From assembly GCA_965249105.1 (NCBI GenBank), contig OZ252219.1:2455108-2519107 (forward strand): a DNA stretch of 64,000 nt, in the 5' to 3' direction. This DNA is from Vicinamibacterales bacterium (GTDB lineage Bacteria > Acidobacteriota > Vicinamibacteria > Vicinamibacterales > UBA8438). The notes under the pieces were generated by a model that saw only the letters and a list, made by a program, of their open reading frames with translations, was not told the DNA's origin and did no database searches. Position 1 is the first letter of the stretch. Each line of letters begins with the position of its first letter. Shown here one piece after another: positions 522 to 60,009 of this stretch. Position numbers and translations under genes: made by a program.

Positions 522-869
522 ATGCCCACCCGTGACCCAACAACCGACACGCAGCGCTACGACGCGCTCAAGCGCACCGTCGCTGAGGTGGGATTGCTTC
601 GACGTGGCAGCCTCGTGCAACGTTTCATGCCGTGCGGCAAGCCGAACTGCCGCTGCCAAGCGACGCCCCCGCAGCTACACGGGCCGTACTATCAGTGGAC
701 CCGCAAGGTCCGCGGCAAGACCGTCACCGTCCGTCTCACCGAGCAGCAAGCCGAGCGTGTCCGGGACTGGATCGAGAACGGCCGACAGCTAGACCGAATC
801 GTTGTGGAAATGGAGACGTTGTCGCTGCGGATGACTGAGCGCCTGCTTCGTCAGCTCACGCCTGTGTGA
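522..869 (+). CDS. DUF6788-like protein (transposon-associated, CxxxxCxC...HGPY motif)
   Basis: RRGSL...CGKPNCRC...HGPYYQWTRKVRGKTVT is the characteristic pattern; 115 aa. Confidence 0.8.
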   Translation: MPTRDPTTDTQRYDALKRTVAEVGLLRRGSLVQRFMPCGKPNCRCQATPPQLHGPYYQWTRKVRGKTVTVRLTEQQAERVRDWIENGRQLDRIVVEMETLSLRMTERLLRQLTPV

Positions 870-1007
870 TGTGGCCCGCACCGTGCGCAAGCCGCCAAAA
901 CACTTCTCTACGCGCAGGGTTTTGCAAGTGCCTCGGTTGGTCAAATTAGACTGCCCTCCAAGGTTGTGTGGTCACACGCTGGCCGATTGTATACCTGGGG
1001 TGCGGGG

Positions 1008-2954
1008 CTAGGGGGGATCGGTGATCCAGAACGGGCGATGGAGTTCCACCACTTCGCCGGAGTTATAGACCACACGCGCGCGTGCGACATACCGGCCTGG
1101 CGGAAGGTCACCGACCGGGACGTTGGCGGAGACGACACTACGACGCGCCTCCTCTACACCGTCAAACGTGACGGTCGTCCGGGTGCGGGCCGGGCCTTTC
1201 GCCGTGTCGGCGACGCCGATGTGGACCGTCGTATGCTCCCAGACCGCCGGGGAGTCCGCATACAGCTCCGTGTACACCACGAGACGATCGCCCGTCACGC
1301 GCGCTTCGACCGGTGCCTGCACCCCACCTGGCTGCGACGAGGACTGATCGGCCACCACGAGGTCGCCCGCCGCGAGCGGCCCACTCGATGTCACCTGGGC
1401 GTGGACCGGATGCTCGACACTGCCTCGCTGACCGGTGGCATCGACGACAGCCACGCGCAGGGAATACGTGCCTGGCGAGATAGTCAGCGGAAACGACGCT
1501 TCGAGGACCGGTCCGTCTGCGGTGTGGACCGGCGTGGCGGTGAGCTGTTGCTGCCGGGTCAACACCGCCCTCCCCTCCGCATCGCGCAACACGATCCCCA
1601 CGGTCAGGGGCGAGGGGACATCGCCCGGGGCGTCGACCTCCGCGGCCACCTGGATCCGCATCTGCTCACGCTCCGTGCCCTGATACGCGTAAGTCGCGAC
1701 CCGGAGCGGAAGCTCCTGGATCGAGATGGGTGACCGCAACATGCGGGCGAGGCGCTCGTCGACGGTCTGGGCGGAGACCTCGGCGACATCGCCGATCTCA
1801 CGCCGGGCCCGCACCTGAACGCCTCTGCGGTCGACCGACACGTTGATCCTGCGGCGCTCCTCGTCTCGGTCCGACGGGCGCGACTCGACGCCAAGCAGGT
1901 AGTAGCCCGACAGCTCCCTCCCCACTTGCTCGAACAACGGGCCAGGGTTGTAACGGGTGCGAATGAGGCGACCGCGCGTCATTGACGAAAGAGCCATGAG
2001 GCCTTGCACCTTCATGCGCTCGTCGTCACGGGTCGTCGGGCTCCACGACGCCCGGCTCATGTCGATGAGCGGTGCGGCGACCATCATCGCGTACAGCGTC
2101 GTGCGGGAGGCGGCCGCCAACCTCTCGATCTCCTTCAAGTTCAAGGCGTCTTCGATCACAAAACCGCCTGCGATCCAGACCAAGGCGTTGGGTCGCTCCA
2201 GTTCGCGCAAGGCGGCCAGGAGCGACTCGAGACCGAGGCGCGCGTTCCTCGTGTGGAACCGCTGCACCCCTACAATCTGGCGGCTCTCGCCCCTTACCTG
2301 CTGCGGGCATCCGACCATGCCGCCGACGCATTCGCGCGCGACCACCCTGGCAAAGGTCCGCTGATCGCCGTACACGATGATCTGGTACGCCTCCCCGACG
2401 CCGATGTCGAAGAGGCCCTGCCGATGTGTGCCCAGCCCCGACATGCTCTCGACCGCGCGGCGGACGCGATCGTGGTCTGACGTGAAATCGATATGGACGC
2501 CGTGCGGGATCACCGCGAGGCCGACCCGGTCGGCCGGGTTCAGACTATCGACGAACTCGCCGGCGGCGAGCATCACCTGCCGCCCTTCTCCAAACAGGAG
2601 GCTCTCCTCATCGACCGCGATTAGGATCAGCCGGCCAGGCGTCTGGTCGGCGTTGGACGAGAAGAAGATCTCCTCCGGGGCAGGCGGGAACGCCATCTCG
2701 TCATCCTTCGGCGGACGCAGCGAAACGAACTGCGCCTGGACGATACGGCGGGGCTCTCCGTCGACGGTGACCGAAAAGTCGGAGGCCTGTAGGTCTGTGA
2801 CCGGATTGCTGTCGCCATCGACGACGGTGACATCGACCTCGATGAGGTCGACACCGGCTCGAAATAGCGGCCGCTGCTGCGGCGTCTGCGCGGAGAGCAC
2901 CGCGGTCACGGCGATCACGAACAGGCCAAGCCCGGTCAGCCGTTGTCCACGCAT
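1008..2954 (-). CDS. VWA domain-containing protein (acidobacterial VWFA-related type) with C-terminal Ig-like modules
   Basis: Signal peptide followed by FRAGVDLIEVDVTVVD. Also LILIAVD, ...ELSGYYLLG. Start moved to ATG 2954. Confidence 0.85.
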   Translation of the reverse strand: MRGQRLTGLGLFVIAVTAVLSAQTPQQRPLFRAGVDLIEVDVTVVDGDSNPVTDLQASDFSVTVDGEPRRIVQAQFVSLRPPKDDEMAFPPAPEEIFFSSNADQTPGRLILIAVDEESLLFGEGRQVMLAAGEFVDSLNPADRVGLAVIPHGVHIDFTSDHDRVRRAVESMSGLGTHRQGLFDIGVGEAYQIIVYGDQRTFARVVARECVGGMVGCPQQVRGESRQIVGVQRFHTRNARLGLESLLAALRELERPNALVWIAGGFVIEDALNLKEIERLAAASRTTLYAMMVAAPLIDMSRASWSPTTRDDERMKVQGLMALSSMTRGRLIRTRYNPGPLFEQVGRELSGYYLLGVESRPSDRDEERRRINVSVDRRGVQVRARREIGDVAEVSAQTVDERLARMLRSPISIQELPLRVATYAYQGTEREQMRIQVAAEVDAPGDVPSPLTVGIVLRDAEGRAVLTRQQQLTATPVHTADGPVLEASFPLTISPGTYSLRVAVVDATGQRGSVEHPVHAQVTSSGPLAAGDLVVADQSSSQPGGVQAPVEARVTGDRLVVYTELYADSPAVWEHTTVHIGVADTAKGPARTRTTVTFDGVEEARRSVVSANVPVGDLPPGRYVARARVVYNSGEVVELHRPFWITDPP

Positions 2955-2961
2955 GCGGGGG

Positions 2962-5655
2962 TCAGGGGATGGGCACACGTTCCAGCAGCTCTTGATCCCA
3001 GTTGAGGACGACGTTGATCTGGGGCGACAGGGATTCACTGCTGTCAGTTTGATCTGCCGGAAAAACCATGACAAACCGCTCGCCGTCGGGCGTCATGTCG
3101 TAGTCCCGGTAAAAGGGCACCGTGATGAAGCCTTCGATTGGCAGCGTCTGCTCGTTGCGGAACGCAAAGTCCGGTTCCGCGACGACATCGACTGACCGCA
3201 GTGTCCCTTGGGTGCGGGTGGCAATAGAAATAGGTCTATAGAACAATCGGTCGCCGTCGGGTGACCAGAGGGGCCAATAGGCCCCGTTCTGCGAAATCCG
3301 GTGTGGCCTCGATCCGGTCGGCGGGAAGGGCTCGACGTAGATGTCAATATCTAAGCCGGTCGTCCCCCTACCGTAGGCCAGCCACTGACCATTCGCCGAC
3401 AGTTCCGCGCCCCAGTAGACCGTGTCGGGCGTGTCATAGAGGCTTTGCGTCTCGAGCGTCGCACTCGACAGCGTCCAGATATCCCAATCACTCACGCGGT
3501 TTCTTTCTACGTTGAACAGAAGCGTCTGACCGTCCGGTGCCCACGACCCTGGCCAATGGGCCGTGCCTTCATCGGCGGTCGTCAGACGCTCCGCCGCGCC
3601 ACTGCCATCGGCTGGCATCGAGTAGAGGCTCATCGTTCCCTCCCGATCAGAGGAGAACGTGATGCGTTGGCTGTCGGGCGTCCAGATAGGACGTTGATTG
3701 TCACCTTCGAACGTGAGCTGTTGGATCTGTGCGTCGCCCGCAAGGTCGTAGAGCCAGAGGACACCGCCGTCATCTTCCGCTGTTTGCACGACCAGCTTCC
3801 TGCCGTCGGGTGAAAGACGCGGCGTCAGATACTGGGCGGGAGGCACAGCGAGGGTTTCGACCGCGCCGTCACGACCCACCAGGGCAAGAGTCCGGTCGCT
3901 GGTCACGGAACGGTCAACGACATACGCCAGCGATCCGTTGTCGGAGTGAGTGGACTGGGCGCGCCCTCCCGCGTCCATTTGGAGCTGGTGGATCCTTTCG
4001 ACGAGCGGCACGGGTCCGGGCGCGAGGGTTCGTTGCTCGATGTCGAACGGCTGAGCGAGCAACGTGCCCTCCCGCACGTACACCAAGTGGCCGGTCGGCA
4101 GATACTCCGCTTCGCTGCCTCCGCTTTCAATGAGCACCAGCCGGTCATCTGTGGCCAACGATTGGATCACGACGCGACCGGGAAACACGGTGAACAGGAC
4201 CCATTCGCCGCCGGGAAGGAGCTGTGGACTTCCGAGCCCGCCTTCGGACCCTTCCTGCGGGATGATGAGCTGCGGCGTGCCACCGCTTGCTGGCACCCGC
4301 CACACTCCGGAAGTGCTGCCAAAGAGGATCGCGTCATCCGGCCCCCAACTCACGCCGAAGGGTTCGACACTCTCGCCGAGTGTGGCCGGTAGACCGCCTG
4401 CCAGGGCGACCTTCTTAAGTTGGCCGGCAGCCCAGAAGCCAACCGTTCGACCGTCTGGCGAGAAGAAGGGTTCGACCGCGCCGTCCGTCCCCCGAATAGG
4501 AATCGCCTCCATCTGGTCCATGTCCCGGAGATAGAGCTGGTCGTTCGCGGCATAGACCAGGTGGGTGCCGTCGGGCGAGAGGGTGATGAGGGAATGCGGG
4601 CCACCGACAAAGTCTGACGGGAGCGCGATGGGGAAGCGCGTGACGGCACCCGGGGCAGCGGGAGCCGACCGCGTCACCGCCCACACGGCGAGGCCGCCGA
4701 TCACGATCAAGACCAGAGCCGAGATGACGGCCGGAACGGGTCGCTGCCAGACGTGAAGGTGAGGAGCAACGTTCGGTTCGGCTGCGCCGACCGTCGTCTC
4801 GAACGCGCCCTCCATGGCCAGCCGCACGTCGTGGATGTCACCCAGGCGCTGCTTCGGGTCCTTTTCAAGGCAACGGTGTAGGAATATCGACAGGGACGGC
4901 GACACGGCCGACGGCAAGTGACTCCAGTCTGGTTCTCGCTGGAGGACGCTCGACAGCGTCATCGACACGTCTTCGCCCTCGAAGACCTTCCGTCCGGTGA
5001 GCATTTCCAAAAGCACGACGCCGAACGCCCAGATATCCGCTCGCTTGTCGACGGTCTTCCCACGTGCTTGCTCCGGCGACATATACGCCGCCGTCCCCAA
5101 GATCGCGCCCATCTGGGTGGCGGCTGCTGTCAGCGTGGGCGATTGAGACGGATCATTATCCGGTCTCGTATCAAGAGCTTTGGCAAGTCCGAAGTCCAGG
5201 ACTTTGACCGTACCGTCGTCGCGCACCTTGATATTGGCCGGCTTCAGATCGCGATGGATCACACCGGCTTCGTGTGCGGCTTCCAAGGCCTCGGCGATCT
5301 GTTTCGCGACCGGCAGCGCCTCGTCGATGGGAATCGGCCCCTGCTTGATTCGATCAGCCAGCGTTGGCCCTTCGACCAGTTCAAGAACCAAGGCGCGGGT
5401 GCCCTCAGCTTCATCTTCTTCAATGCCGTAGATGGCCGCGATGCCAGAGTGGTTGAGGCTGGCAAGAACTTGCGCCTCTCGTTGGAACCGTGCCAGTCGA
5501 TCAGGATCAGTGGCAAACGCCTCGGGCAGGGTCTTCAGCGCCACCTGCCGGTTGAGCTTGGTGTCGGTGGCCTGATAGACCTGCCCCATGCCGCCCTCGC
5601 CGATAAGGGCGGTCACGTCGTAGTGAGCGAGGCGGGAGCCGACGTTCAGAGACAT
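2962..5655 (-). CDS. Hanks-type Ser/Thr protein kinase with a TM segment and C-terminal PD40/TolB-like beta-propeller
   Basis: IGEGGMGQVY, VALK, HRDLKPAN, DFG, YMSPE. Repeated xSPDG propeller motifs. Start at ATG 5655 (MSLNVGSRLAHY). Confidence 0.92.
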   Translation of the reverse strand: MSLNVGSRLAHYDVTALIGEGGMGQVYQATDTKLNRQVALKTLPEAFATDPDRLARFQREAQVLASLNHSGIAAIYGIEEDEAEGTRALVLELVEGPTLADRIKQGPIPIDEALPVAKQIAEALEAAHEAGVIHRDLKPANIKVRDDGTVKVLDFGLAKALDTRPDNDPSQSPTLTAAATQMGAILGTAAYMSPEQARGKTVDKRADIWAFGVVLLEMLTGRKVFEGEDVSMTLSSVLQREPDWSHLPSAVSPSLSIFLHRCLEKDPKQRLGDIHDVRLAMEGAFETTVGAAEPNVAPHLHVWQRPVPAVISALVLIVIGGLAVWAVTRSAPAAPGAVTRFPIALPSDFVGGPHSLITLSPDGTHLVYAANDQLYLRDMDQMEAIPIRGTDGAVEPFFSPDGRTVGFWAAGQLKKVALAGGLPATLGESVEPFGVSWGPDDAILFGSTSGVWRVPASGGTPQLIIPQEGSEGGLGSPQLLPGGEWVLFTVFPGRVVIQSLATDDRLVLIESGGSEAEYLPTGHLVYVREGTLLAQPFDIEQRTLAPGPVPLVERIHQLQMDAGGRAQSTHSDNGSLAYVVDRSVTSDRTLALVGRDGAVETLAVPPAQYLTPRLSPDGRKLVVQTAEDDGGVLWLYDLAGDAQIQQLTFEGDNQRPIWTPDSQRITFSSDREGTMSLYSMPADGSGAAERLTTADEGTAHWPGSWAPDGQTLLFNVERNRVSDWDIWTLSSATLETQSLYDTPDTVYWGAELSANGQWLAYGRGTTGLDIDIYVEPFPPTGSRPHRISQNGAYWPLWSPDGDRLFYRPISIATRTQGTLRSVDVVAEPDFAFRNEQTLPIEGFITVPFYRDYDMTPDGERFVMVFPADQTDSSESLSPQINVVLNWDQELLERVPIP

Positions 5656-7986: not shown

Positions 7987-8151
7987 CTAGTGCAGTGGTT
8001 CAGAAATACCTCGGCATTCGGCCACCGATGCATCCCTTCTGCCTGCGTTGCTCCTCTGTCACAGATTCCCGATTTGCTCCTTCGTCGCGCCTGGCCAGAA
8101 GGGTGCTTCGGCGCCCTCGGTGCACGAGGTATTTCTGAACCACTGCACTAG
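7987..8151. mobile_element. MITE copy 1 (IS630-type ends, CTAG/TA target)
   Basis: Perfect 27-bp terminal inverted repeats CTAGTGCAGTGGTTCAGAAATACCTCG at 7987-8013 and 8125-8151. A second copy lies in opposite orientation at 21055-21219. Confidence 0.9.
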
Positions 8152-17575: not shown

Positions 17576-17824
17576 CGAGCCCAGGAGTGTTCTAGACGTG
17601 CGCTCGCCCTTCGTCAGCATCGCGCCACGAGAAGATGTTGCCGGTGACCCTCAGGCCCTCGCGTCGCCGGAGTATCGCGAGGGCTACACCGAGCACAAGG
17701 CCGACGAGGGCGCAGCAGACCGCGAGCCACCAGATCTGGGGACTCACCAGTGTGAGAAGCCCAGCCAGGGCGACCACACTCAGTCCACCGACTCCCGGAA
17801 CCGGTCCACCACTAAGGTTTATGC

Positions 17825-19273
17825 GGTAGATTCAAACGGTCGTCGCAACACCTCAACGGTGAGGAGTTGCGATGGGAACACCGAAACGTCGTCGGTCACC
17901 CCGTGCGGGACGTCTTCCGATGCGGTCGCCGGGTCGTCCCACGGCGGGACGCCGTGAGCATCGGCGTCGGTTCTGGGAGGCGATCGCCTGCGGGTTGTCC
18001 AGCGACGAGGCGGCGCTGGGGGCCGGCGTGTCCCAGCCGGTCGGAACGAGATGGTTCCGCGAAAGTGGAGGCATGCCGCCGATCAGCCTGGCCCCTCTGT
18101 CGGGGCGCTACCTGTCGTTTGCCGAGCGAGAAGAGATCGCCATCTTGCACGCCCAGCACTGCGGGGTTCGTGATATCGCTCGGCGAATCAGCCGGTCCCC
18201 GTCGACCATCTCTCGGGAGCTCCGTCGCAATGCGGCAACCCGCAGTGGCGGACTCGAGTATCGCGCGACGACCGCGCAGTGGCACGCCGACCTGAAGGCG
18301 AAAAGACCGCAGGTGGCGAAGCTCGCTGCACACGACGAACTGCGCCGGTACGTGCAAGACCGACTCGCCGGCAGGATTACGGCCGCCGACGGGACGAGGG
18401 TGCCTGGTCCCCATGTGCACTGGAACGGTCGCCGCCCCGGGCGCCGTCAAGACCGACGCTGGGCGGCGTCATGGAGTCCTGAGCAAATTGCCAACAGACT
18501 CAAGGTCGACTTCCCCGATGAGGAGTCGATGCGGATCTCCCACGAGGCCATCTACCAGGCGCTCTACGTGCAGGGACGAGGGGCACTGCGACGCGACCTG
18601 GTGGCGTGCTTGCGGACCGGCCGGGCGCTGCGCGTGCCAAGAGCACGGACACGAGGACGCGGCAAGGCGTTCGTCACTGCCGAAATCATGATCAGCAAGC
18701 GCCCCGCCGAAGCAGACGATCGGGCGGTCCCAGGACACTGGGAAGGTGACCTGATTGTCGGACTGGGGAGCTCTGCGATTGGGACCCTCGTGGAACGCAC
18801 CAGCCGATTCACGAGGCTGCTGCATCTGCCTCGCATGGATGACTATGGGCAGCCTCGGATCAAGAACGGTCCCGCCCTGGCGGGGCATGGTGCCGAGGCC
18901 GTCCGAGACGCCATCGCGTCGTCGATCATCACGCTGCCCACGCAGCTTCGCCGTTCACTGACATGGGACCAAGGCGCCGAGATGGCTCAACACGTTCAAC
19001 TCCGAATCGACACCGGTCTGCCAATCTACTTCTGCGACCCACACAGCCCCTGGCAACGCGGCACGAACGAGAACACCAACGGCCTGCTGCGGCAGTACTT
19101 TCCCAAAGGCACCGACCTGTCCAGACACTCTCGTGATGATCTTGACGCCGTTGCTGCTGCTCTCAACAGTCGCCCCCGCAAGACCCTCGGCTGGAAGACA
19201 CCCGCGGAGGCACTTGGCGATCACCTATGCTCAATCACACAACGCGGTGTTGCGACGACACCTTGAACCCAAG
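17825..19273 (+). mobile_element. IS30-family insertion sequence, copy 1 (1449 bp)
   Basis: Imperfect 27-bp IRs (GGTAGATTCAAACGGTCGTCGCAACAC / GTGTTGCGACGACACCTTGAACCCAAG). TGC target duplication at 17822-17824 and 19274-19276. Confidence 0.95.
17872..19266 (+). CDS. IS30-family transposase
   Basis: LSFAEREEI HTH, ISRELRRN, WSPEQI, HWEGDLI, TWDQGAEM, ENTNGLLRQYFPK. Confidence 0.95.
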   Translation: MGTPKRRRSPRAGRLPMRSPGRPTAGRREHRRRFWEAIACGLSSDEAALGAGVSQPVGTRWFRESGGMPPISLAPLSGRYLSFAEREEIAILHAQHCGVRDIARRISRSPSTISRELRRNAATRSGGLEYRATTAQWHADLKAKRPQVAKLAAHDELRRYVQDRLAGRITAADGTRVPGPHVHWNGRRPGRRQDRRWAASWSPEQIANRLKVDFPDEESMRISHEAIYQALYVQGRGALRRDLVACLRTGRALRVPRARTRGRGKAFVTAEIMISKRPAEADDRAVPGHWEGDLIVGLGSSAIGTLVERTSRFTRLLHLPRMDDYGQPRIKNGPALAGHGAEAVRDAIASSIITLPTQLRRSLTWDQGAEMAQHVQLRIDTGLPIYFCDPHSPWQRGTNENTNGLLRQYFPKGTDLSRHSRDDLDAVAAALNSRPRKTLGWKTPAEALGDHLCSITQRGVATTP

Positions 19274-19903: not shown

Positions 19904-21058
19904 CTAGTGTCCTGAGTACGAAATAGCTGTACACGAAACGCTGTACTTTGCGCTGCCCGTTTGGTACGGTAGCGCATGTTCATTCAACGGTACTGTGTCT
20001 ACGCATCGCCGACCGAGCAAGCCCAGTTGGCCCAGGTGGCTGAGCGCGGGACGACGACGCAGAAGGTGGCGCGGCGGGCGCGGATCGTGTTGATGCTGGC
20101 GCAACAGGCCTCGCCGATGGTCGTGGCCCGGACGCTGCACGTCAGTCGGATGACGGTGCGGTTGTGGGCGCGCCGGTTTGTGGCCGAGGGGGTTCCGGGC
20201 GTGCTCCGCGACGCCACGCGTCCGGGCCGACGCCCACGCTTGACCCTGACGAAGGTGCAGGCGATCGTTGACGCGACCCTGACGACGCGCCCGCCGGCCG
20301 GCACCCATTGGAGTAGTCGCGCCCTGGCGGAAGCGCAGGGCGTGAGCGACGGCACGATTCGTAAGATCTGGCGACAACACGGCCTCCAGCCCCACCGCGT
20401 GGGGCAGTTCAAGCTGTCGACCGACCCCCACTTCGTCGAGAAGCTGCGCGACGTGGTGGGGCTGTATCTGAATCCACCCGCCAAAGCGGTGGTGTTTTGC
20501 GTCGATGAGAAGAGTGGGATCCAAGCGCTGGACCGGACGCGCCCGGTGTTGCCACTGCGGCCCGGCGTCCCCGAACGCCAGACCCATGACTACGTCCGCT
20601 ACGGGACGACCACGCTGTATGCCGCACTGCGCGTGCTCGATGGCGTCGTGATCGGCGAATGCCGCCGCCGTCACCGGAGTCAGGAATTCGTGCGGTTCCT
20701 CCGGCGGCTGGAACGCGCGACGCCTCCCGATCAGCCGCTGCACCTGATTTTGGACAACCTGAGTGCCCACAAGAGTCCCCAGGTGCGGCGCTGGCTCACG
20801 CGCCATCCCCGCGTGCACTTTCACTTCGTGCCCACCAGCAGCTCCTGGCTGAATCTGGTGGAACGCTGGTTTGCGGAGATCACTCGCACGCGGCTCCGCC
20901 GGGGCACCTTCACCAGCGTGCCGGCGCTCGAGCGAGCGATCCACGACTACTTGACTCATTACAATCAGCATGCGAAGCCGTTTATCTGGACCAAGGCTGC
21001 CGACACCATCCTCGCGAAGGTCGACCGGTGTAAAGAAGCGTTAAACGCACCACACTAG
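19904..21058 (+). mobile_element. IS630-family insertion sequence
   Basis: Bounded by CTAG at both ends. Imperfect IRs (CTAGTGTCCTGAGTACGAAATAG / revcomp CTAGTGTGGTGCGTTTAACG). Contains one transposase ORF. Confidence 0.9.
19976..21058 (+). CDS. IS630-family transposase
   Basis: N-terminal HTH, HWSSRALA, VDEKSGIQAL, ILDNLSAHK, SSWLNLVERWF (DDE). Confidence 0.95.
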   Translation: MFIQRYCVYASPTEQAQLAQVAERGTTTQKVARRARIVLMLAQQASPMVVARTLHVSRMTVRLWARRFVAEGVPGVLRDATRPGRRPRLTLTKVQAIVDATLTTRPPAGTHWSSRALAEAQGVSDGTIRKIWRQHGLQPHRVGQFKLSTDPHFVEKLRDVVGLYLNPPAKAVVFCVDEKSGIQALDRTRPVLPLRPGVPERQTHDYVRYGTTTLYAALRVLDGVVIGECRRRHRSQEFVRFLRRLERATPPDQPLHLILDNLSAHKSPQVRRWLTRHPRVHFHFVPTSSSWLNLVERWFAEITRTRLRRGTFTSVPALERAIHDYLTHYNQHAKPFIWTKAADTILAKVDRCKEALNAPH

Positions 21059-21219
21059 TGCAGTGGTTCAGAAATACCTCGTGCACCGAGGGCGCCGAAG
21101 CACCCGTCTGGCCAGGCGCGACGAAGGAGCAAATCGGGAATCTGTGACTGAGGAGCAACGCAGGCAGAAGGGATGCATCGGTGGCCGAATGCCGAGGTAT
21201 TTCTGAACCACTGCACTAG
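21055..21219. mobile_element. MITE copy 2 (inverted relative to copy 1)
   Basis: Same 27-bp TIRs and same 165-bp length. Only two substitutions seen versus 7987-8151. Shares its CTAG with the IS630 right end. Confidence 0.9.
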
Positions 21220-22517
21220 AGACTGGTCACACTGACGCCACCCAACTTGGCCCCGCCCAGCGCAAGGAGAATGGGGACAAGCCGCAATCCCAACGCCCCG
21301 GAGCCTCCAATGCCGCCGGATGCCAGCAGGGCGAGCCCCACGACCATCAGGCCGCTACCGACGACCATCCTCCACGGCGCGGGGCTCGGCGCCGTGCGCT
21401 TCGACGGATGCTCGAAGCGGCTGAAGATTCCGACGAACGGGAGAAGCGCGACCGCAAAGACAGCCACCCAGGCAAGGCGCGTCCACCACCAGTCACCGGT
21501 GCCGGGCATGACCTCCAAACCGATCCCGCCCAGCCATATGGAAACGCCGAACGACAACATCATCACGGTGCTGTGCCAGAGGAAGATAGTCATGATCATC
21601 CCGTTGACCAACACCGTCGCCGTCCACAGATGCGAGCCGGCCAGCAGTGACGCCAGCCGGCGCTCGATCAGCATGATGCCTCCGAACTGAAAGGCCGCGA
21701 GGGCCACCAGCGGAAGGTGAGGCGGCTCCGTGTTGCTGACCACCTCGCCCGGCACTCCGACCAGGCTGTGGGGCCACGGGCCCACCTCGGTGAGCGCCAC
21801 CAGCGAGCCGAGACCGACGATGCACCAGAGGGACGAGCGAAGGCGGGAAGCGAATCGACCTTCAAGCCAGGCATAGCCCAGCTGGTGAACCCCAACCCAG
21901 ACGAAGAGGTAGTTGACCCACCCCGCCTCCGTCCAGTCGAGCCCGAAGTAAGCACCGTCGACGAGACCGGCCAAGAGAAACGGGACCACGATAGACCCCA
22001 TCCCCATCGACTTCCAAGCGGCGCGGGTAAATGGGACCAGCAAGATCACAAGCGCATAGACCGCCAGGAACCAGGTCGGCACGAGGGCGATCTGGGAACC
22101 GACTCGGATCATCCCGGCCGACACGCCGACGCCATGGGCCACGCCAGCGGTGACGATCCAGAACAGGACCAGCACCACCACCGGCCCGAGAAGGCGGGTC
22201 AGTCGGCTGCTCAGCCAATCCCGGTACGACGTGCCGTCCCGACAGGCCGCATCCCAGGAGATCCCGTTGGAATAACCGCCGACAAAGAAGAATATGGGCA
22301 TCACCTGCATCACCCAGGTCAGCCATTAAGCCCAAGGCGAAACATCAAGCAGGTGGTTGATGTGGGCGCCGTCCGCATCTACCCAGGGCGCGGCCATCAA
22401 CCAATGGCCCGTCACCACCACGAGGATCGAAACCGCCCTCAGGAAATCGACGCAGCGATTTCGCTTCGCCGGTGTCTTCTCCGCCAGTCTGGCGGCGGCG
22501 CTCCAGGGGGACTTCAT
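21216..22517 (-). pseudogene. Acyltransferase family 3 membrane protein with an in-frame TAA
   Basis: RNRCVDFLRAVSILVVVTGHW ... SPWA*WLTWVMQVMPIFFFVGG. The stop at 22326-22328 is in frame with 21216-22313. Confidence 0.82.
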
Positions 22518-22526
22518 CTCACCTCA

Positions 22527-25500
22527 TCATGCCATCCTGATCCACCGAACCAACGTCGCCACGTTCGGCGGCTTTCCGTGCATGAGGAGTCCAACGCGAA
22601 ACACCTTCGCGGCGAACCAGAGTGCTGCGTAGACCGCCGCGCTGGAGATGACGATCGTCAGCCATACCTGCCACAGCGGTGGTGGCGTGGCGGAGCTCAT
22701 GCGCAACAGCATTGCGAACGTGTTCACCGGCGGAACGAAACTCATCGCGGTACTGAAGGCGGAATCTGGACTCTGGTTGATCGGTCCCATCAAGAGGAAC
22801 GGAATCACCAACACAAGCATGATCGGGGTCATGAGCGACTGGGCTTCGTTCATGTCATTGACTGCAGCGCCCACGGCAGCCACGAGAGCACCATACACGA
22901 AGTAGGTCAGCACGAAGAAGATGAACAAGTACGCCACGAGGCCGACGTCGAGAAGGTCAAACATCGCGAACGACAACAGCGCCACGATCCCTAGTGCCAC
23001 GTACAAGCCGAGGACGGTGAGCCCGACGCCGAGCTGCCCAAGGATCTTGCCGGTCATCAGCTCCAGCGGCGACACGGCCGACAGCAATACTTCAACAATC
23101 CGGCTGGACTTCTCCTCAATGGTCGTCGTCAGGAGGGCTTGGCCGCTAATGACCACGGCCACAAAGAGCAGCATGCCGAACGCCATGGGAATGAGCCGAT
23201 TCAAGACCCTCGAGGTCTCACGCTCCGTGTCGACCGTGATCGCGATGGTGGGCGATGGAGACACGTCAAGCAACGCCGTGAGGACGTTCCGGTCGAGGTC
23301 GTGCGCCTCAACCCGTGCCGCGACGATCGCGTCCTCCAGACTGTCATGAATCTCATCCTCGATGCGCTCATCGAGTTGAGGTCCCACGAACAAGTCGTAG
23401 GCGCCGAAGTCGACACTCCCATCCGACAATTCGACGGCGTTCTCATGCACGACGGCCAGAGCCAATCGGCGAGTCGTGGCAGCCTCGTCCGCGAGGCGCT
23501 GCTTCTCTTGTTCGACATCGCCCGAGGTCGTGAGCTCAACCACGTCCAGGTGCGCCACCTCACCCAGCGCGTCCGTCATCGCCGACGCGACATCGGTCCC
23601 CTCAGCCACATTCCGCACGTCATCCGGGAGCTCGTCAAGGACTCGCTCCGTGGTGGCCGCGCGGTCGGGTAGACCAGGGTCGTTGCTGACCCCAGCCCCC
23701 CACAGATCCGGACATGCGGGTTCTTCCGCATCCGGCTCCTCGGCAGATGGTGTCGCTACACGCCGGTGGCGAAGTGAGCGGCCGTCATCCGCGGAAGAGG
23801 ATATCGCGCGAGAAGGCGGAGGAACCGCGTCCACGGCATTGTCCTCTGCTGCGACCGGCGGTTGAGCCACTTTTGCCAGATGTGCACGACGTGGAAGCCG
23901 AACGTCGTCAGGCTCGAGGCGTTCCCCCGAATCCCAAAGTAGGCACAATGCCCGCGCAGCTTCCACACCAACATCCGATGCTGCTTCGCGATCGATTCAT
24001 GGCGGTGCGTACAACACCAGCGATTGACGGCCGTCAGGCTCCGCCGGAGGCGGTCCTTGGCCGTCTTGCGCTTGAGCACCCAGCTGCCGTTCCGGGCGAT
24101 GCACCAGTAGTGCGTGAACCCCAGGAAGTCGAACGTGCCGGGTGGCGGGAATCTGTCACCGTTCTGCCCCGGGCGCCAACCCAAGCGCGGTCGGCGGAAC
24201 CGAACCAGACGGCTCTTCTCCGGATGCATCGTGAGCCCGACCCGCCCGAGGCGTTTCGGGAGCACCTCCAGCACCCGGTGGGCGTCAGATTCCTGCTCGA
24301 CGACGATGACCACGTCGTCCGCGTAGCGGACGAGGACGCTGCGGCCACGGAGGCATGGTTGCACCTCCGTCGTGAACCATACGTCGAGGACATAGTGGAG
24401 GTAGATGTTCGCCAACAGCGGCGACACGACCCCACCTTGCGGGGTGCCGAGGACGGAACGACGCACCTGCCCGTCCTCCAACACACCGGCTTTCAGCCAT
24501 TTGTCAATCGCGCGGCGCAGCACGCCGTCGCGTACCCGCTGGTCCAGAAAGCCGCGGAGATGTCCGTGGTCCAGGGCATCGAAGAAGCCCTGGATGTCCA
24601 GGTCAATCACCCAGCCTCCGCCCATCAGCATGGTCTGCTCCCAGAGGTGCTGCAGGGCCTGGTGAGCCGAGCGCCCAGGGCGGAAGCCGAAGCTACAGTC
24701 CCGGAAGTCCTGCTCGTAGACACTTTCCAGCACCATCACCACGGCTCGCTGCAGCACCTTGTCCTCGAACGTCGGTATCCCGATTGGTCGAGTCTTCCGG
24801 CCATCCCCTTTCGGGATGTGGACGCGGCGCACGGGAGGCGCGACATACTGGCCGGACTTGAAGCGGTCGAGCAGCGACTGGAGGTTGGCCTCCAGATTCG
24901 CTGCGTAGTCGTCCGCCGTTTGTCCGTCCAGTCCGACCGCCCCGTCTTTCCGCGTTACTACATAAGCCGCGTGAAGCATGTCCCTGTCGATGTGGTGAGC
25001 CAGGCTCGTGACCACCATATCCGATGCCTGTCTGGCCAGTTCGGCTATCCGTTGTCGTTTCAGTGAGATGGGGTCCAACCTCGGCGTGTTGGCCATCGTT
25101 CCCTCCAACGGTTCCATCTGTCGGCGCCCCCTTCCCTCCACGGGGTCTCGTGGACCCGATTCCCCCGCTTCGCCGGTACTATGAGACGCTCCGATTCCTC
25201 GCCGCCCCTCCCCCGCGCTTCGTTGCCTTCGCGCGGCGGTACCATCCGAGCACCTGCGGGTTCGCTCCGTCGGACGCCAGGTGCCACGTCCACGGCCTCG
25301 GGCTTGGTGAGCCGGTGCCCGCCCCCCGGCAACCTTTAAGATGGAGACGATGAGGCCTCCCGGGTTCCCGGGAAACCCACCCGCACGCATGCCACGCGCT
25401 CCGACCCCGGCGAGGTCGCCGCCTCCACGGCCTCTGAGATGCGGCGAGATAGCCTTCCGTCCAACGCACGACGTCGGCCCTCACAAACAATGCATTTCGG

Positions 25501-25930
25501 GGCTCAATCACGCGGCCTACGGGCTCCCTGTGAACGCTTCGCGCCCTGGGTCACCCCAGGCCCACGCATCACTCGGTTCCGGCTGGCGGCCGACCTTGGC
25601 CGGATGGGATTGGATACCCACAGGGTTTCGAACAAGGTTTCAAAGATCACATCACGGCATCTTGTCCTCCTTGACCGGGCTTTCCCGGCACACGCGCTGG
25701 AGCATGGCGTCGGGATCGAGGTAGGCGCGAACGCCCTCGGTCACAACGCCGGTAGGGTCGATCAGCGCGATCTCGCCCTCGACCCGAGGTGGGTCGTTCG
25801 TCATGAGCCGTGGAGCCACGAGGCTCATCACCAGAATCATCGCGGGCATGAGGAGCACACCCAGGAGGAACCCCTTCGTTGCCACGGTGCCGAGGTATTC
25901 CCGACCTGCCACCAGGATGACCTTTCTCAC
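22527..25930 (-). CDS. ABC-2 type transporter permease split by a group II intron (exons 25930-25694 and 23663-22527; 457 aa spliced)
   Basis: Exon 1 is 79 codons (MRKVILVAGREY...DPDAMLQR) and joins in frame to RAATTERVLDE...IEEKSSRIVEVLLSAVSPLELMTGKILG. Confidence 0.88.
23664..25693 (-). mobile_element. Group II intron (IIB-like), 2030 bp
   Basis: 5' end GTGTG at 25693. Domain V GAGCCGGATGCGG...CCGCATGTCCGGATC (23738-23705). Domain VI ends CTACCCGAC with the bulged-A spacing and AY terminus at 23664. Confidence 0.93.
23756..25096 (-). CDS. Group II intron reverse transcriptase/maturase without an endonuclease domain
   Basis: GLDG, RRVHIPK, RPIGIPTFEDKVLQ, SFGFRPGRS, GTPQGGVVSPLLANIYL, RYADD, FDFLGF. 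GGAGG RBS before ATG 25096. Ends after domain X with no HNH. Confidence 0.95.
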   Translation of the reverse strand: MANTPRLDPISLKRQRIAELARQASDMVVTSLAHHIDRDMLHAAYVVTRKDGAVGLDGQTADDYAANLEANLQSLLDRFKSGQYVAPPVRRVHIPKGDGRKTRPIGIPTFEDKVLQRAVVMVLESVYEQDFRDCSFGFRPGRSAHQALQHLWEQTMLMGGGWVIDLDIQGFFDALDHGHLRGFLDQRVRDGVLRRAIDKWLKAGVLEDGQVRRSVLGTPQGGVVSPLLANIYLHYVLDVWFTTEVQPCLRGRSVLVRYADDVVIVVEQESDAHRVLEVLPKRLGRVGLTMHPEKSRLVRFRRPRLGWRPGQNGDRFPPPGTFDFLGFTHYWCIARNGSWVLKRKTAKDRLRRSLTAVNRWCCTHRHESIAKQHRMLVWKLRGHCAYFGIRGNASSLTTFGFHVVHIWQKWLNRRSQQRTMPWTRFLRLLARYPLPRMTAAHFATGV

Positions 25931-26913
25931 CCACTCACCTCCGCGTCCGTGTCGCCGCGCAAGTCGGCCCGCAGCATCGGGTCAGAACTCGCTGCGCTGC
26001 CGTGATCGGAAACGATTTGGATGAAGATGTCCTCGAGTTTCGGTCGAGCGAGCTCCAGACGAGCCGGCGTGATGGCCCCGGCGAGCGTCCGCATGGCCTG
26101 CCCCGTGTCGGTCCCTGCCTCTAGCGTGATCTCACATGTGCCATCGACCTGAATCAAACGCCGAATGCCATTGAGACGTTCCAGGACCGAGAGATCCGCA
26201 TGCGGGTCGAGGGGATCCAGCAACACAGTTCGGGGATCGTAGCGGCGGCGTATGCTCGCGAGGCTGTCGTCGAGAACCTTTCGTCCACGGTGAACCATGA
26301 CCACGTGCTCGCACAGTTGCTCCGCATGAGGCATCACGTGCGTCGACAGGAGAATCGTTGCCCCACGCCGATGCTCTGCATCGATCATCTCCCGAACCAG
26401 ACGGGTGCTGATAGGGTCGAGACCACTGAACGGCTCGTCGAGAATAAGGAGATCCGGGGCATGCAGAATTGCCGCGAGGAACTGTATCTTCTGCAACATG
26501 CCCTTCGACAGCTCCTCGCAGCGCTTGTGTTCGGCGTCGGCGAGTCCCACCCGCTCGAGTCCTTGACGGATACGAGCCGGTAGGGTCTGACGGTCGGCGT
26601 CCTTGAGTCGGGCCACGTAGGTCAAGAAGGCGCGCACGGTCATCTTCCGGTACACACCCCGCTCTTCAGGCAAATAACCGATGCGGCGCTTGGCCTCGAG
26701 CGCTGACGCATGCCCCAACACGTTGAGCTGGCCAGAGTCTGGAAAGAGGAAGAGGATGGACATGATCAGGCGCAACGTCGTCGTCTTGCCGGCGCCGTTC
26801 GGCCCGATGAATCCGTAAAGGCCGCCCTGCGGGACAGCAAGATCCAGATCAAGAACCGCCGCGACCTCGCCGAAGGTCTTGGTGACGCCCTTGATGGAAA
26901 TCGCGGAGTTCAT
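25927..26913 (-). CDS. ABC transporter ATP-binding protein
   Basis: GPNGAGKTT Walker A, LSKGM signature, LILDEP Walker B, H-loop. Confidence 0.95.
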   Translation of the reverse strand: MNSAISIKGVTKTFGEVAAVLDLDLAVPQGGLYGFIGPNGAGKTTTLRLIMSILFLFPDSGQLNVLGHASALEAKRRIGYLPEERGVYRKMTVRAFLTYVARLKDADRQTLPARIRQGLERVGLADAEHKRCEELSKGMLQKIQFLAAILHAPDLLILDEPFSGLDPISTRLVREMIDAEHRRGATILLSTHVMPHAEQLCEHVVMVHRGRKVLDDSLASIRRRYDPRTVLLDPLDPHADLSVLERLNGIRRLIQVDGTCEITLEAGTDTGQAMRTLAGAITPARLELARPKLEDIFIQIVSDHGSAASSDPMLRADLRGDTDAEVSG

Positions 26914-58409: not shown

Positions 58410-58560
58410 CATGGAGACGAGCCAACTAGTGGCCGCGGTCCTGATGATGGTGTCGCCAGCGTTGTTCGCCCTGAGCTATCAGCTCTACCACCCAATCCGG
58501 ACCCTTGATGTAGAGGACTCCAAGACACGAGGACTCCACATTGCGTTGTGGAGCATCACC

Positions 58561-60009
58561 GGTAGATTCAAACGGTCGTCGCAACACCTCAACGGTGAGG
58601 AGTTGCGATGGGAACACCGAAACGTCGTCGGTCACCCCGTGCGGGACGTCTTCCGATGCGGTCGCCGGGTCGTCCCACGGCGGGACGCCGTGAGCATCGG
58701 CGTCGGTTCTGGGAGGCGATCGCCTGCGGGTTGTCCAGCGAAGAGGCGGCGCTGGGGGCCGGCGTGTCCCAGCCGGTCGGAACGAGATGGTTCCGCGAAA
58801 GTGGAGGCATGCCGCCGATCAGCCTGGCCCCTCTGTCGGGGCGCTACCTGTCGTTTGCCGAACGAGACGAGATCGCCATCTTGCACGCCCAGCACTGCGG
58901 GGTTCGTGATATCGCTCGGCGAATCAGCCGGTCCCCGTCGACCATCTCTCGGGAGCTCCGTCGCAATGCGGCAACCCGCAGTGGCGGACTCGAGTATCGC
59001 GCGACGACCGCGCAGTGGCACGCCGACCTGAAGGCGAAAAGACCGCAGGTGGCGAAGCTCGCTGCACACGACGAACTGCGCCGGTACGTGCAAGACCGAC
59101 TCGCCGGCAGGATTACGGCCGCCGACGGGACGAGGGTGCCTGGTCCCCATGTGCACTGGAACGGTCGCCGCCACGGGCGCCGTCAAGACCGACGCTGGGC
59201 GGCGTCATGGAGTCCTGAGCAAATTGCCAACAGACTCAAGGTCGACTTCCCCGATGAGGAGTCGATGCGGATCTCCCACGAGGCCATCTACCAGGCGCTC
59301 TACGTGCAGGGACGAGGGGCACTGCGACGCGACCTGGTGGCGTGCTTGCGGACCGGCCGGGCGCTGCGCGTGCCAAGAGCACGGACACGAGGACGCGGCA
59401 AGGCGTTCGTCACTGCCGAAATCATGATCAGCAAGCGCCCCGCCGAAGCAGACGATCGGGCGGTCCCAGGACACTGGGAAGGTGACCTGATTGTCGGACT
59501 GGGGAGCTCTGCGATTGGGACCCTCGTGGAACGCACCAGCCGATTCACGAGGCTGCTGCATCTGCCTCGCATGGATGACTATGGGCAGCCTCGGATCAAG
59601 AACGGTCCCGCCCTGGCGGGGCATGGTGCCGAGGCCGTCCGAGACGCCATCGCGTCGTCGATCATCACGCTGCCCACGCAGCTTCGCCGTTCACTGACAT
59701 GGGACCAAGGCGCCGAGATGGCTCAACACGTTCAACTCCGAATCGACACCGGTCTGCCAATCTACTTCTGCGACCCACACAGCCCCTGGCAACGCGGCAC
59801 GAACGAGAACACCAACGGCCTGCTGCGGCAGTACTTTCCCAAAGGCACCGACCTGTCCAGACACTCTCGTGATGATCTTGACGCCGTTGCTGCTGCTCTC
59901 AACAGTCGCCCCCGCAAGACCCTCGGCTGGAAGACACCCGCGGAGGCACTTGGCGATCACCTATGCTCAATCACACAACGCGGTGTTGCGACGACACCTT
60001 GAACCCAAG
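58561..60009 (+). mobile_element. IS30-family insertion sequence, copy 2 (1449 bp)
   Basis: Same IRs as copy 1. ACC target duplication at 58558-58560 and 60010-60012. At least four substitutions versus copy 1. Confidence 0.95.
58608..60002 (+). CDS. IS30-family transposase
   Basis: 464 aa, differing from 17872-19266 at only a few residues. Confidence 0.95.
   Translation: MGTPKRRRSPRAGRLPMRSPGRPTAGRREHRRRFWEAIACGLSSEEAALGAGVSQPVGTRWFRESGGMPPISLAPLSGRYLSFAERDEIAILHAQHCGVRDIARRISRSPSTISRELRRNAATRSGGLEYRATTAQWHADLKAKRPQVAKLAAHDELRRYVQDRLAGRITAADGTRVPGPHVHWNGRRHGRRQDRRWAASWSPEQIANRLKVDFPDEESMRISHEAIYQALYVQGRGALRRDLVACLRTGRALRVPRARTRGRGKAFVTAEIMISKRPAEADDRAVPGHWEGDLIVGLGSSAIGTLVERTSRFTRLLHLPRMDDYGQPRIKNGPALAGHGAEAVRDAIASSIITLPTQLRRSLTWDQGAEMAQHVQLRIDTGLPIYFCDPHSPWQRGTNENTNGLLRQYFPKGTDLSRHSRDDLDAVAAALNSRPRKTLGWKTPAEALGDHLCSITQRGVATTP

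Follow-up and report, generated by a model that had tools for sequence, protein, structure and literature searches.

Probable recent ectopic retrotransposition of an endonuclease-lacking, insertion sequence-homing group II intron into an ABC permease gene of a soil acidobacterium

Among the group II introns that reside in insertion sequences (ISs), RmInt1 and RmInt2 represent the closest described parallels to the element reported here. RmInt1 from Sinorhizobium meliloti homes to ISRm2011-2, and RmInt2 homes to both inverted repeats of ISRm17 (PMC5894124). RmInt1 uses a replication-fork primer, and it inserts ectopically into oxi1 because this gene mimics its intron-binding site (IBS) sequences (PMC5894124). 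On the other hand, cases of group II introns in the cellular genes of bacteria have been documented, although they are uncommon (PMC4424553). The present locus shares features with both situations. It lies in a 64,000-nt stretch of contig OZ252219.1 (positions 2,455,108 to 2,519,107 of the forward strand; assembly GCA_965249105.1) from a Vicinamibacterales bacterium, hereafter the window, whose own numbering is used below. Here, the permease gene of an ATP-binding cassette (ABC) transporter (22527..25930) is interrupted by a 2030-nt group II intron (23664..25693); gene, intron, and all of their parts are on the minus strand. The favored reading, to which a probability of roughly 85% is given, is a recent ectopic retrotransposition into the permease gene by a mobile, intact, endonuclease-lacking, and IS-homing group II intron. 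A recent hop of a selfish retroelement is preferred because the family has a common IS target, the permease site is a degenerate version of it, the same site is empty in a sister strain, and copies 99.8% identical are found elsewhere.

The intron is complete. It begins with GUGUG (25693..25689) and ends with AC (23665..23664), in agreement with the GUGYG/AY boundary consensus. From genomic comparison alone the boundaries could be shifted by one C; this ambiguity is resolved by the GUGUG...AC consensus together with a helix between exon-binding site 1 (EBS1) and IBS1 that ends at exon position -1. The conserved domain I core (25395..25613) matches the full length of the Rfam model RF02005 (group-II-D1D4-6) with 138.7 bits (E 2e-39), and RF00029, the model of domains V-VI, matches 23664..23740 with 46.7 bits against a gathering score of 40. 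As delimited by RF00029 and the fold, domain V (23705..23738) is a 34-nt hairpin with a 2-nt bulge that starts with GAGC, holding the AGC catalytic triad, and domain VI (23666..23702) presents a bulged branch-point A at 23670, 7 nt from the 3' end and inside the 7-8-nt range typical of this residue. Without the open reading frame (ORF) the ribozyme measures 689 nt. The insert is thus a structurally intact group II intron, composed of an IIB-like ribozyme and an intron-encoded protein. An earlier note on this DNA had described the GUGUG 5' end, domains V and VI, and the AC 3' end; both Rfam models, the fold, and the empty-site allele described below agree with it, and every element of that observation was recovered in place.

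The intron-encoded protein, an RT/maturase (RT, reverse transcriptase) of 446 aa, is encoded within domain IV (23756..25096) downstream of a GGAGGG Shine-Dalgarno sequence, and holds a YADD motif at residue 258. It matches TIGR04416 (group_II_RT_mat) with 339 bits (cut-off 300) over profile positions 4-352 of 353, with RT blocks 0-7 followed by the X/maturase region. RVT_1 (2e-35) is its sole Pfam domain, and no endonuclease domain (D/En, H-N-H) was detected by the Pfam search after the maturase region, where some 32 residues are left beyond the TIGR04416 match. The protein is therefore of the type found in classes A, C, D, E, and F and in some CL introns. A sequence search of the PDB returned generic group II RT relatives only, the best being LtrA (1e-48). 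In the window copy the ORF is intact and has no disruptive private changes.

The gene that the intron interrupts can be reconstructed to the base. Its 5' exon (25694..25930) comprises 79 codons (237 nt) from a GTG start, and its 3' exon (22527..23663) comprises 378 codons plus the stop and bears the ABC2_membrane_3 domain, as delimited by the ORF and Pfam. With an exon 1 of 237 nt the insertion is in phase 0, and the joined exons encode a 457-aa protein with the junction DAMLQR/RAATTE (here and below, a slash marks the insertion point), which matches PF12698 (ABC2_membrane_3) at 2e-31. This domain, the partner ATPase, and colinearity with uninterrupted homologues place the product among the ABC-2 permeases. 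The ATPase gene (25927..26913), encoding an ATP-binding subunit with ABC_tran and DrrA C-terminal domains, is directly upstream in the operon, and its stop codon overlaps the permease start. The closest homologues of the spliced permease are uninterrupted, 457 aa long, and 98%, 96%, and 91% identical; an alignment of 12 protein sequences, down to 53% identity, is free of gaps at the junction. Conversely, translation of the unspliced RNA halts 13 codons into the intron and yields a 92-aa fragment, and gene callers split the permease into fragments of 92 and 479 aa. From the ORFs and domains it follows that full-length permease should be obtainable only from spliced RNA. The earlier note had held that intron removal restores a 457-aa permease, that unspliced RNA stops 13 codons into the intron, and that permease production depends on splicing; the first two points are borne out by translation and colinearity, and the third is supported on logical grounds.

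Intron-less alleles of the gene were found in database DNA. In the sister strain L004, the gene is 99.2% identical and its site is empty, reading GCCATGCTCCAGCGC/CGCGCGGCC, which are the exons of the window joined exactly. The gene is also uninterrupted in L001-L003, where it is 97.4% identical and carries CTGCGC at positions -6..-1. In an attempt to count occupied alleles, the 92-aa truncated product of exon 1 was looked up in public assemblies, where this product is not on record.

EBS1, GCGUUG (25467..25462), is displayed in a hairpin, CGUC-GUGCGUUG-GACG (25458..25473), and IBS1, CAGCGC, occupies exon positions -6 to -1 (25694..25699). Six pairs can be formed, five Watson-Crick and one G-U, the latter at position -4, and GCGUUG is perfectly complementary to the consensus CAACGC of the family. 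Across nine aligned copies of the intron the GCGUUG loop is invariant, whereas its stem shows a compensatory change from U-A to C-G. More distant relatives (RT identity 40-65%; from Planctomycetota, Gemmatimonadota, Chloroflexota, and others) were aligned by means of a hidden Markov model of the first 300 nt, and the homologous hairpin was compared with the 5' exon of each intron. In 75% of the 28 distinct intron/exon combinations, six or more base pairs can form in a helix anchored at -1, compared with 7% of mismatched intron/exon controls (n=630), so that complementarity between loop and exon occurs far more than by chance. The GCGUUG loop is consequently assigned as EBS1 on comparative grounds. 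This loop and its pairing with CAGCGC had been proposed in the earlier note, whose assignment appears correct given the invariance, the stem covariation, and the contrast of 75% with 7%. Folding leads to the same result, as the EBS1 loop sits in a predicted domain I hairpin of the Rfam consensus, and neither EBS1 nor EBS2 is paired in the minimum-energy fold or in the centroid fold.

EBS2, UGCAU (25490..25494), is part of 13 unpaired nucleotides just 5' of the stem bearing the EBS1 hairpin. It is complementary to AUGCA, found at positions -12..-8 in the family, a pairing typical for introns of the IIA and IIB types. In the window, IBS2 reads AUGCU (25701..25705) and pairs with EBS2 at four of the five positions; the exception is -8, which is U here and A at ten other sites. 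In three relatives (L015, L018, and L008), EBS2 and the exon change in step. A putative IBS3 is the first base of the 3' exon, C (23663..23663).

ENA metagenome assemblies commonly contain relatives of the RT with 86-99% identity. Compared with the window intron, nucleotide identity is 98.8% for a full-length copy in L085, 96.2% for L086, 95.1% for L084, 94.5-94.6% for L087, 90.9% for L088 and L089, 88.2-88.3% for L090, and 85.4% for L005, a metagenome-assembled genome of Vicinamibacterales. The nearest copies, in L091 and L092, are 99.75-99.8% identical and encode an identical RT protein; L091 also bears a partial copy. When the window is taken together with ten further sites with matching IBS1, the eleven insertion sites have a common target of 14 nt, with the 5' flank YCRTGCACCAACGC/C and the consensus (Y)C-R-T-G-C-A-C-C-A-A-C-G-C / C, in which +1 is C at 10 of the 11 sites. 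Five of them have in common an extended flank of 25-30 nt. Genes for DDE_Tnp_1 (IS5-like) transposases, identified by Pfam, adjoin five copies (L084, L085, L088, L091, and L005; the flanks of L085 and L005 encode them), and the flank of L090 holds a transposase-like remnant with no Pfam match. Moreover, a second, unoccupied copy of the target is found in L005 and L084, inverted and about 1075-1082 nt away, which would represent the other end of the IS. The usual homing site of this family is thus predicted to lie in the inverted repeats at the ends of an IS5-like element of ~1.1 kb.

The permease site, CCATGCTCCAGCGC/C, spans the codons Q78-R79/R80 and departs from this target at two positions: -8 has T instead of A, and -4 has G instead of A, where a G-U pair can still form. 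No copy of the homing IS was found within the window, where only two other sites lie within two mismatches of RTGCACCAACGCC, compared with 4.75 expected by chance. The permease site would therefore be an imperfect, occasional chance mimic of the IS homing site. As for timing, the intron copies differ by 0.2% and the host genes of the two strains by 0.8%; the intron copies having diverged less than the host genes, the insertion post-dates the strain split. It can be described as a precise, sense-strand insertion into a near-cognate site, polymorphic among strains.

Some members of the family show signs of decay. The RT frame of L085 (intron 1788..3818) has lost its stop codon or its frame, that of L084 is internally deleted and ends at codon 134, and the RT of L088 and L089 is shortened to 429 aa. 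The family thus appears to be a mix of active and decaying copies. In addition, the 3' flank of the L084 copy (5216..) begins with GTGCGCCAGG, which resembles the 5' end of another intron; in L089, a fragment similar to an intron 5' end (2829..3025, minus strand) lies immediately upstream of the copy, on the opposite strand; and in L088, another RT gene and a match to domains V-VI (759..1973) are found upstream of the copy. These intron-adjacent copies look like nested or tandem arrangements.

The following sequence of events is proposed. The intron RNA would recognize its IS site through EBS2 (UGCAU with -12..-8) and EBS1 (GCGUUG with -6..-1), and one EBS3 base would probably pair with the C at +1. 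In the same way, the ribonucleoprotein would have reverse-spliced into the sense strand of the permease gene at its near match, after which the intron would have been copied without second-strand cleavage from a primer at the replication fork, as RmInt1 does. This kind of priming is considered most likely because the intron protein has no endonuclease. The synthesis of the permease would now need maturase-assisted splicing, which presumably takes place in vivo and for which six EBS1 pairs and four of five EBS2 pairs should suffice.

Several observations weigh against this interpretation. Shuffled sequence folds with an energy as good as that of domains I-III (z = -0.21), a comparison that is uninformative at 65% G+C. 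A scan of domain I columns against the +1 base, in 15 introns with both ends defined, gave no signal for EBS3, the +1 base being nearly always C. The GC skew of the plus strand (-0.015 overall) is too weak for a test of the lagging-strand-template bias that endonuclease-lacking introns should show. Finally, the intron separates R79 (25694..25696) from R80 (23661..23663), two arginines invariant in 12 homologues down to 53% identity, and these invariant flanks could hint at selection of the site. Their position is equally explained by the match of CGC/C to arginine codons in a GC-rich genome. The loop that holds both residues, which follows the first transmembrane segment, is otherwise variable.

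The likeness to RmInt1 concerns both the protein and the target. Both introns encode an RT and maturase with no endonuclease domain, and the natural homing site of both is inside an IS, with that of the window intron deduced from its relatives. Both would read the target through EBS2, EBS1, and a single EBS3 base, with a C at +1 as in wild-type RmInt1 (PMC4075523), EBS3 being putative here. Like RmInt1 in oxi1, the window intron seems to represent an occasional ectopic insertion into a chromosomal gene through mimicry of the IBS sequences, polymorphic among strains (PMC5894124). Despite these similarities, the two introns belong to separate lineages: the window intron encodes 446 aa in 2030 nt, whereas most class D introns encode ~401-421 aa in 1805-1911 nt; its EBS1 is GCGUUG instead of UUUCGUC; its host belongs to Acidobacteriota; and its IS is IS5-like, whereas that of RmInt1 is an IS630 element. 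RmInt2 differs by the same lineage features, but offers a closer parallel as regards the target, which is in the terminal inverted repeats of the IS with either end usable (PMC5894124); L005 and L084, with one end occupied and one empty, suggest the same for the present family.

Similarly, the introns of the Azotobacter groEL operon and of Geobacillus recA are sense-oriented within a cellular protein gene, the expression of which needs splicing (PMC4424553). Unlike these introns of housekeeping genes, which mostly come from CL/ML lineages and cyanobacteria, the window intron comes from an endonuclease-lacking, IS-resident lineage, and its insertion is demonstrably recent, with an empty allele and donor-like copies at hand. 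Group IIE and IIF introns (Nagy et al. 2013) also resemble it in their IIB-like ribozyme (450-700 nt reported, against 689 nt here), the absence of an endonuclease, clear EBS1 and EBS2 in domain Id, and the 3' AC (PMC3753933). Against this, the g3/class F intron Ni.ha.I1 is only 32% identical and matches RF02003.

For the assignment to a class, the Rfam D1D4 models were mapped to intron classes via the reference introns of Tables S1 and S2 of PMC3552965. Class D (IIB3, RmInt1-like) was considered because of the IS-homing behavior and was rejected, as RT identity is 36% to E.c.I9 and 34% to the class D intron of B. pseudofirmus, and the references match RF01999 instead of RF02005. Class C (IIC), with no EBS2, a short EBS1, and terminator or attC sites, does not fit an intron with an EBS2, a 6-bp EBS1, and a sequence-specific target in an IS or coding sequence. 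Over partial lengths, RT identity is 37% to E.c.I4 of class A, which matches RF02012, 32% to Ni.ha.I1 of g3/class F, and 34% to Sr.me.I2 of g1, which matches no D1D4 model; these classes were rejected as well. By elimination of classes A, C, D, g3/F, and g1, the lineage may be class E, endonuclease-lacking CL-like, or unclassified. Among named organisms, the closest relatives are plasmid-borne introns of Halomonas and Bradyrhizobium (55-57%) and a multi-copy S. meliloti intron (44%); all of them are unclassified and match RF02005. The S. meliloti relative (L093) is not RmInt1, since its EBS1 loop reads GUUCCCUAA and that of RmInt1 reads UUUCGUC.

Many relatives depart from the boundary consensus. 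Among those with RT identities of 55-65%, the introns of L007, L011, L012, L017, L020, L025, L033, L038-L041, L044, L050, L058, L059, L062, and L072 start with UUGCG instead of GUGYG, L009 starts with CUGCG and L013 with GCGCG, and many end in GGC or GGU instead of AY. The non-GUGYG 5' boundaries are supported by EBS1-IBS1 helices that end at -1, and one UUGCG..GU intron had already been reported (PMC7923331).

The alternative that survives best is that the insertion is a dead end for the permease, in which splicing in vivo is poor or absent and the gene is knocked out or strongly knocked down, a loss tolerated as the operon is dispensable or decaying. The Acyl_transf_3 gene just downstream (~21216..22516) carries a change from CAA to TAA at codon 63 (22326..22328, minus strand) relative to intact orthologues, and the region is rich in insertion sequences; because of both, the operon may be dispensable in the window strain. 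Splicing of RmInt1 itself is very poor in the natural host, with inactivation of the target IS as the consequence (PMC5894124), and Ll.LtrB, although spliced, is reported to reduce the expression of its host gene (PMC6003770). Folding of the ribozyme could also be disturbed by translation of the first 13 codons of the intron. However, the ribozyme and the maturase are intact, EBS1-IBS1 retains its six pairs, and EBS2-IBS2 is dispensable for the self-splicing of IIE and IIF introns (PMC3753933). Both exons are still open, match the empty allele at 99.2% identity, and show no decay, although the insertion may be too young for it. Loss of the permease is thus a possible outcome, but a rather unlikely one.

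Far less probable is a domesticated or regulatory intron, in which conditional splicing, dependent on temperature, stress, or maturase level, would gate the expression of the transporter. Such a role would fit the formal dependence of the permease on splicing, the phase 0 insertion between the invariant R79 and R80, and the documented modulation of host-gene expression by group II introns (PMC6003770). Nevertheless, the site is empty in the closest strains, the intron is still fully equipped for mobility and occurs elsewhere in 99.8% identical copies, its site is merely a near match to the IS homing site, all of the best 120 of 3310 matches to the permease are uninterrupted (about 452-471 aa), and phase 0 has a one-in-three chance. 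That the occupied allele is kept as a useful splicing gate, in an early domestication of an endonuclease-lacking intron in an acidobacterial operon, is accordingly given very little credence. The earlier note had left the choice between a true splicing intron and a conditional switch: the intactness of the intron and the splicing-dependent expression stand, whereas a resident intron or a switch is disfavored by the empty site, the IS target, and the 99.8% copies. As for a misjoining of a repeated element into the permease gene during metagenome assembly, the intron is a multi-copy repeat in the metagenomes concerned and low coverage is indicated in the labels of several related contigs, but a chimeric join would not reproduce junctions exactly at the canonical intron ends, flanks that rejoin to the base as in an independent empty allele, and a site that fits the family target motif in the correct orientation, which makes this explanation scarcely credible.

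Recent ectopic retrotransposition being the preferred reading, the locus represents a cleanly documented natural case of such an event into a cellular gene, for which metagenomes supply the occupied site, its identical unoccupied counterpart, donor-type copies that are near-identical, and the IS homing site to which the intron is cognate. The host is a soil acidobacterium (Acidobacteriota, Vicinamibacterales), of a phylum in which such elements are little described. From the locus, a concrete EBS/IBS code can be read for the intron family, of possible use in retargeting or annotation, and it illustrates how gene callers split intron-bearing genes. The case is clear but ordinary, the type of event being known; nothing in it suggests a regulatory switch, and the knowledge of group II intron biology is left unchanged.

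Some further observations concern the surroundings of the operon. The orthologues of the downstream acyltransferase are intact, with 443 aa in L004 and 466 aa in L001, and the 3' end of the window gene diverges after ~nt 1318; this gene is either a pseudogene or affected by a sequencing error. Mobile-element loads differ between the window strain and L004 at the same locus. In L004, an IS256-like insertion (Transposase_mut; 3601..4884), absent in the window, separates the gene for the ABC ATPase from a MASE6 gene. The window, in turn, holds two 1450-bp copies of an IS30-like element (17824..19273 and 58560..60009), 99.7% identical and encoding a 464-aa transposase with HTH_38 and rve domains. 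An IS630-like DDE_3 transposase gene (19976..21058, plus strand) abuts the end of the acyltransferase gene, and a 165-bp stretch at its edge (21055..21219) is repeated in inverted orientation at 7987..8151 with 98.8% identity.

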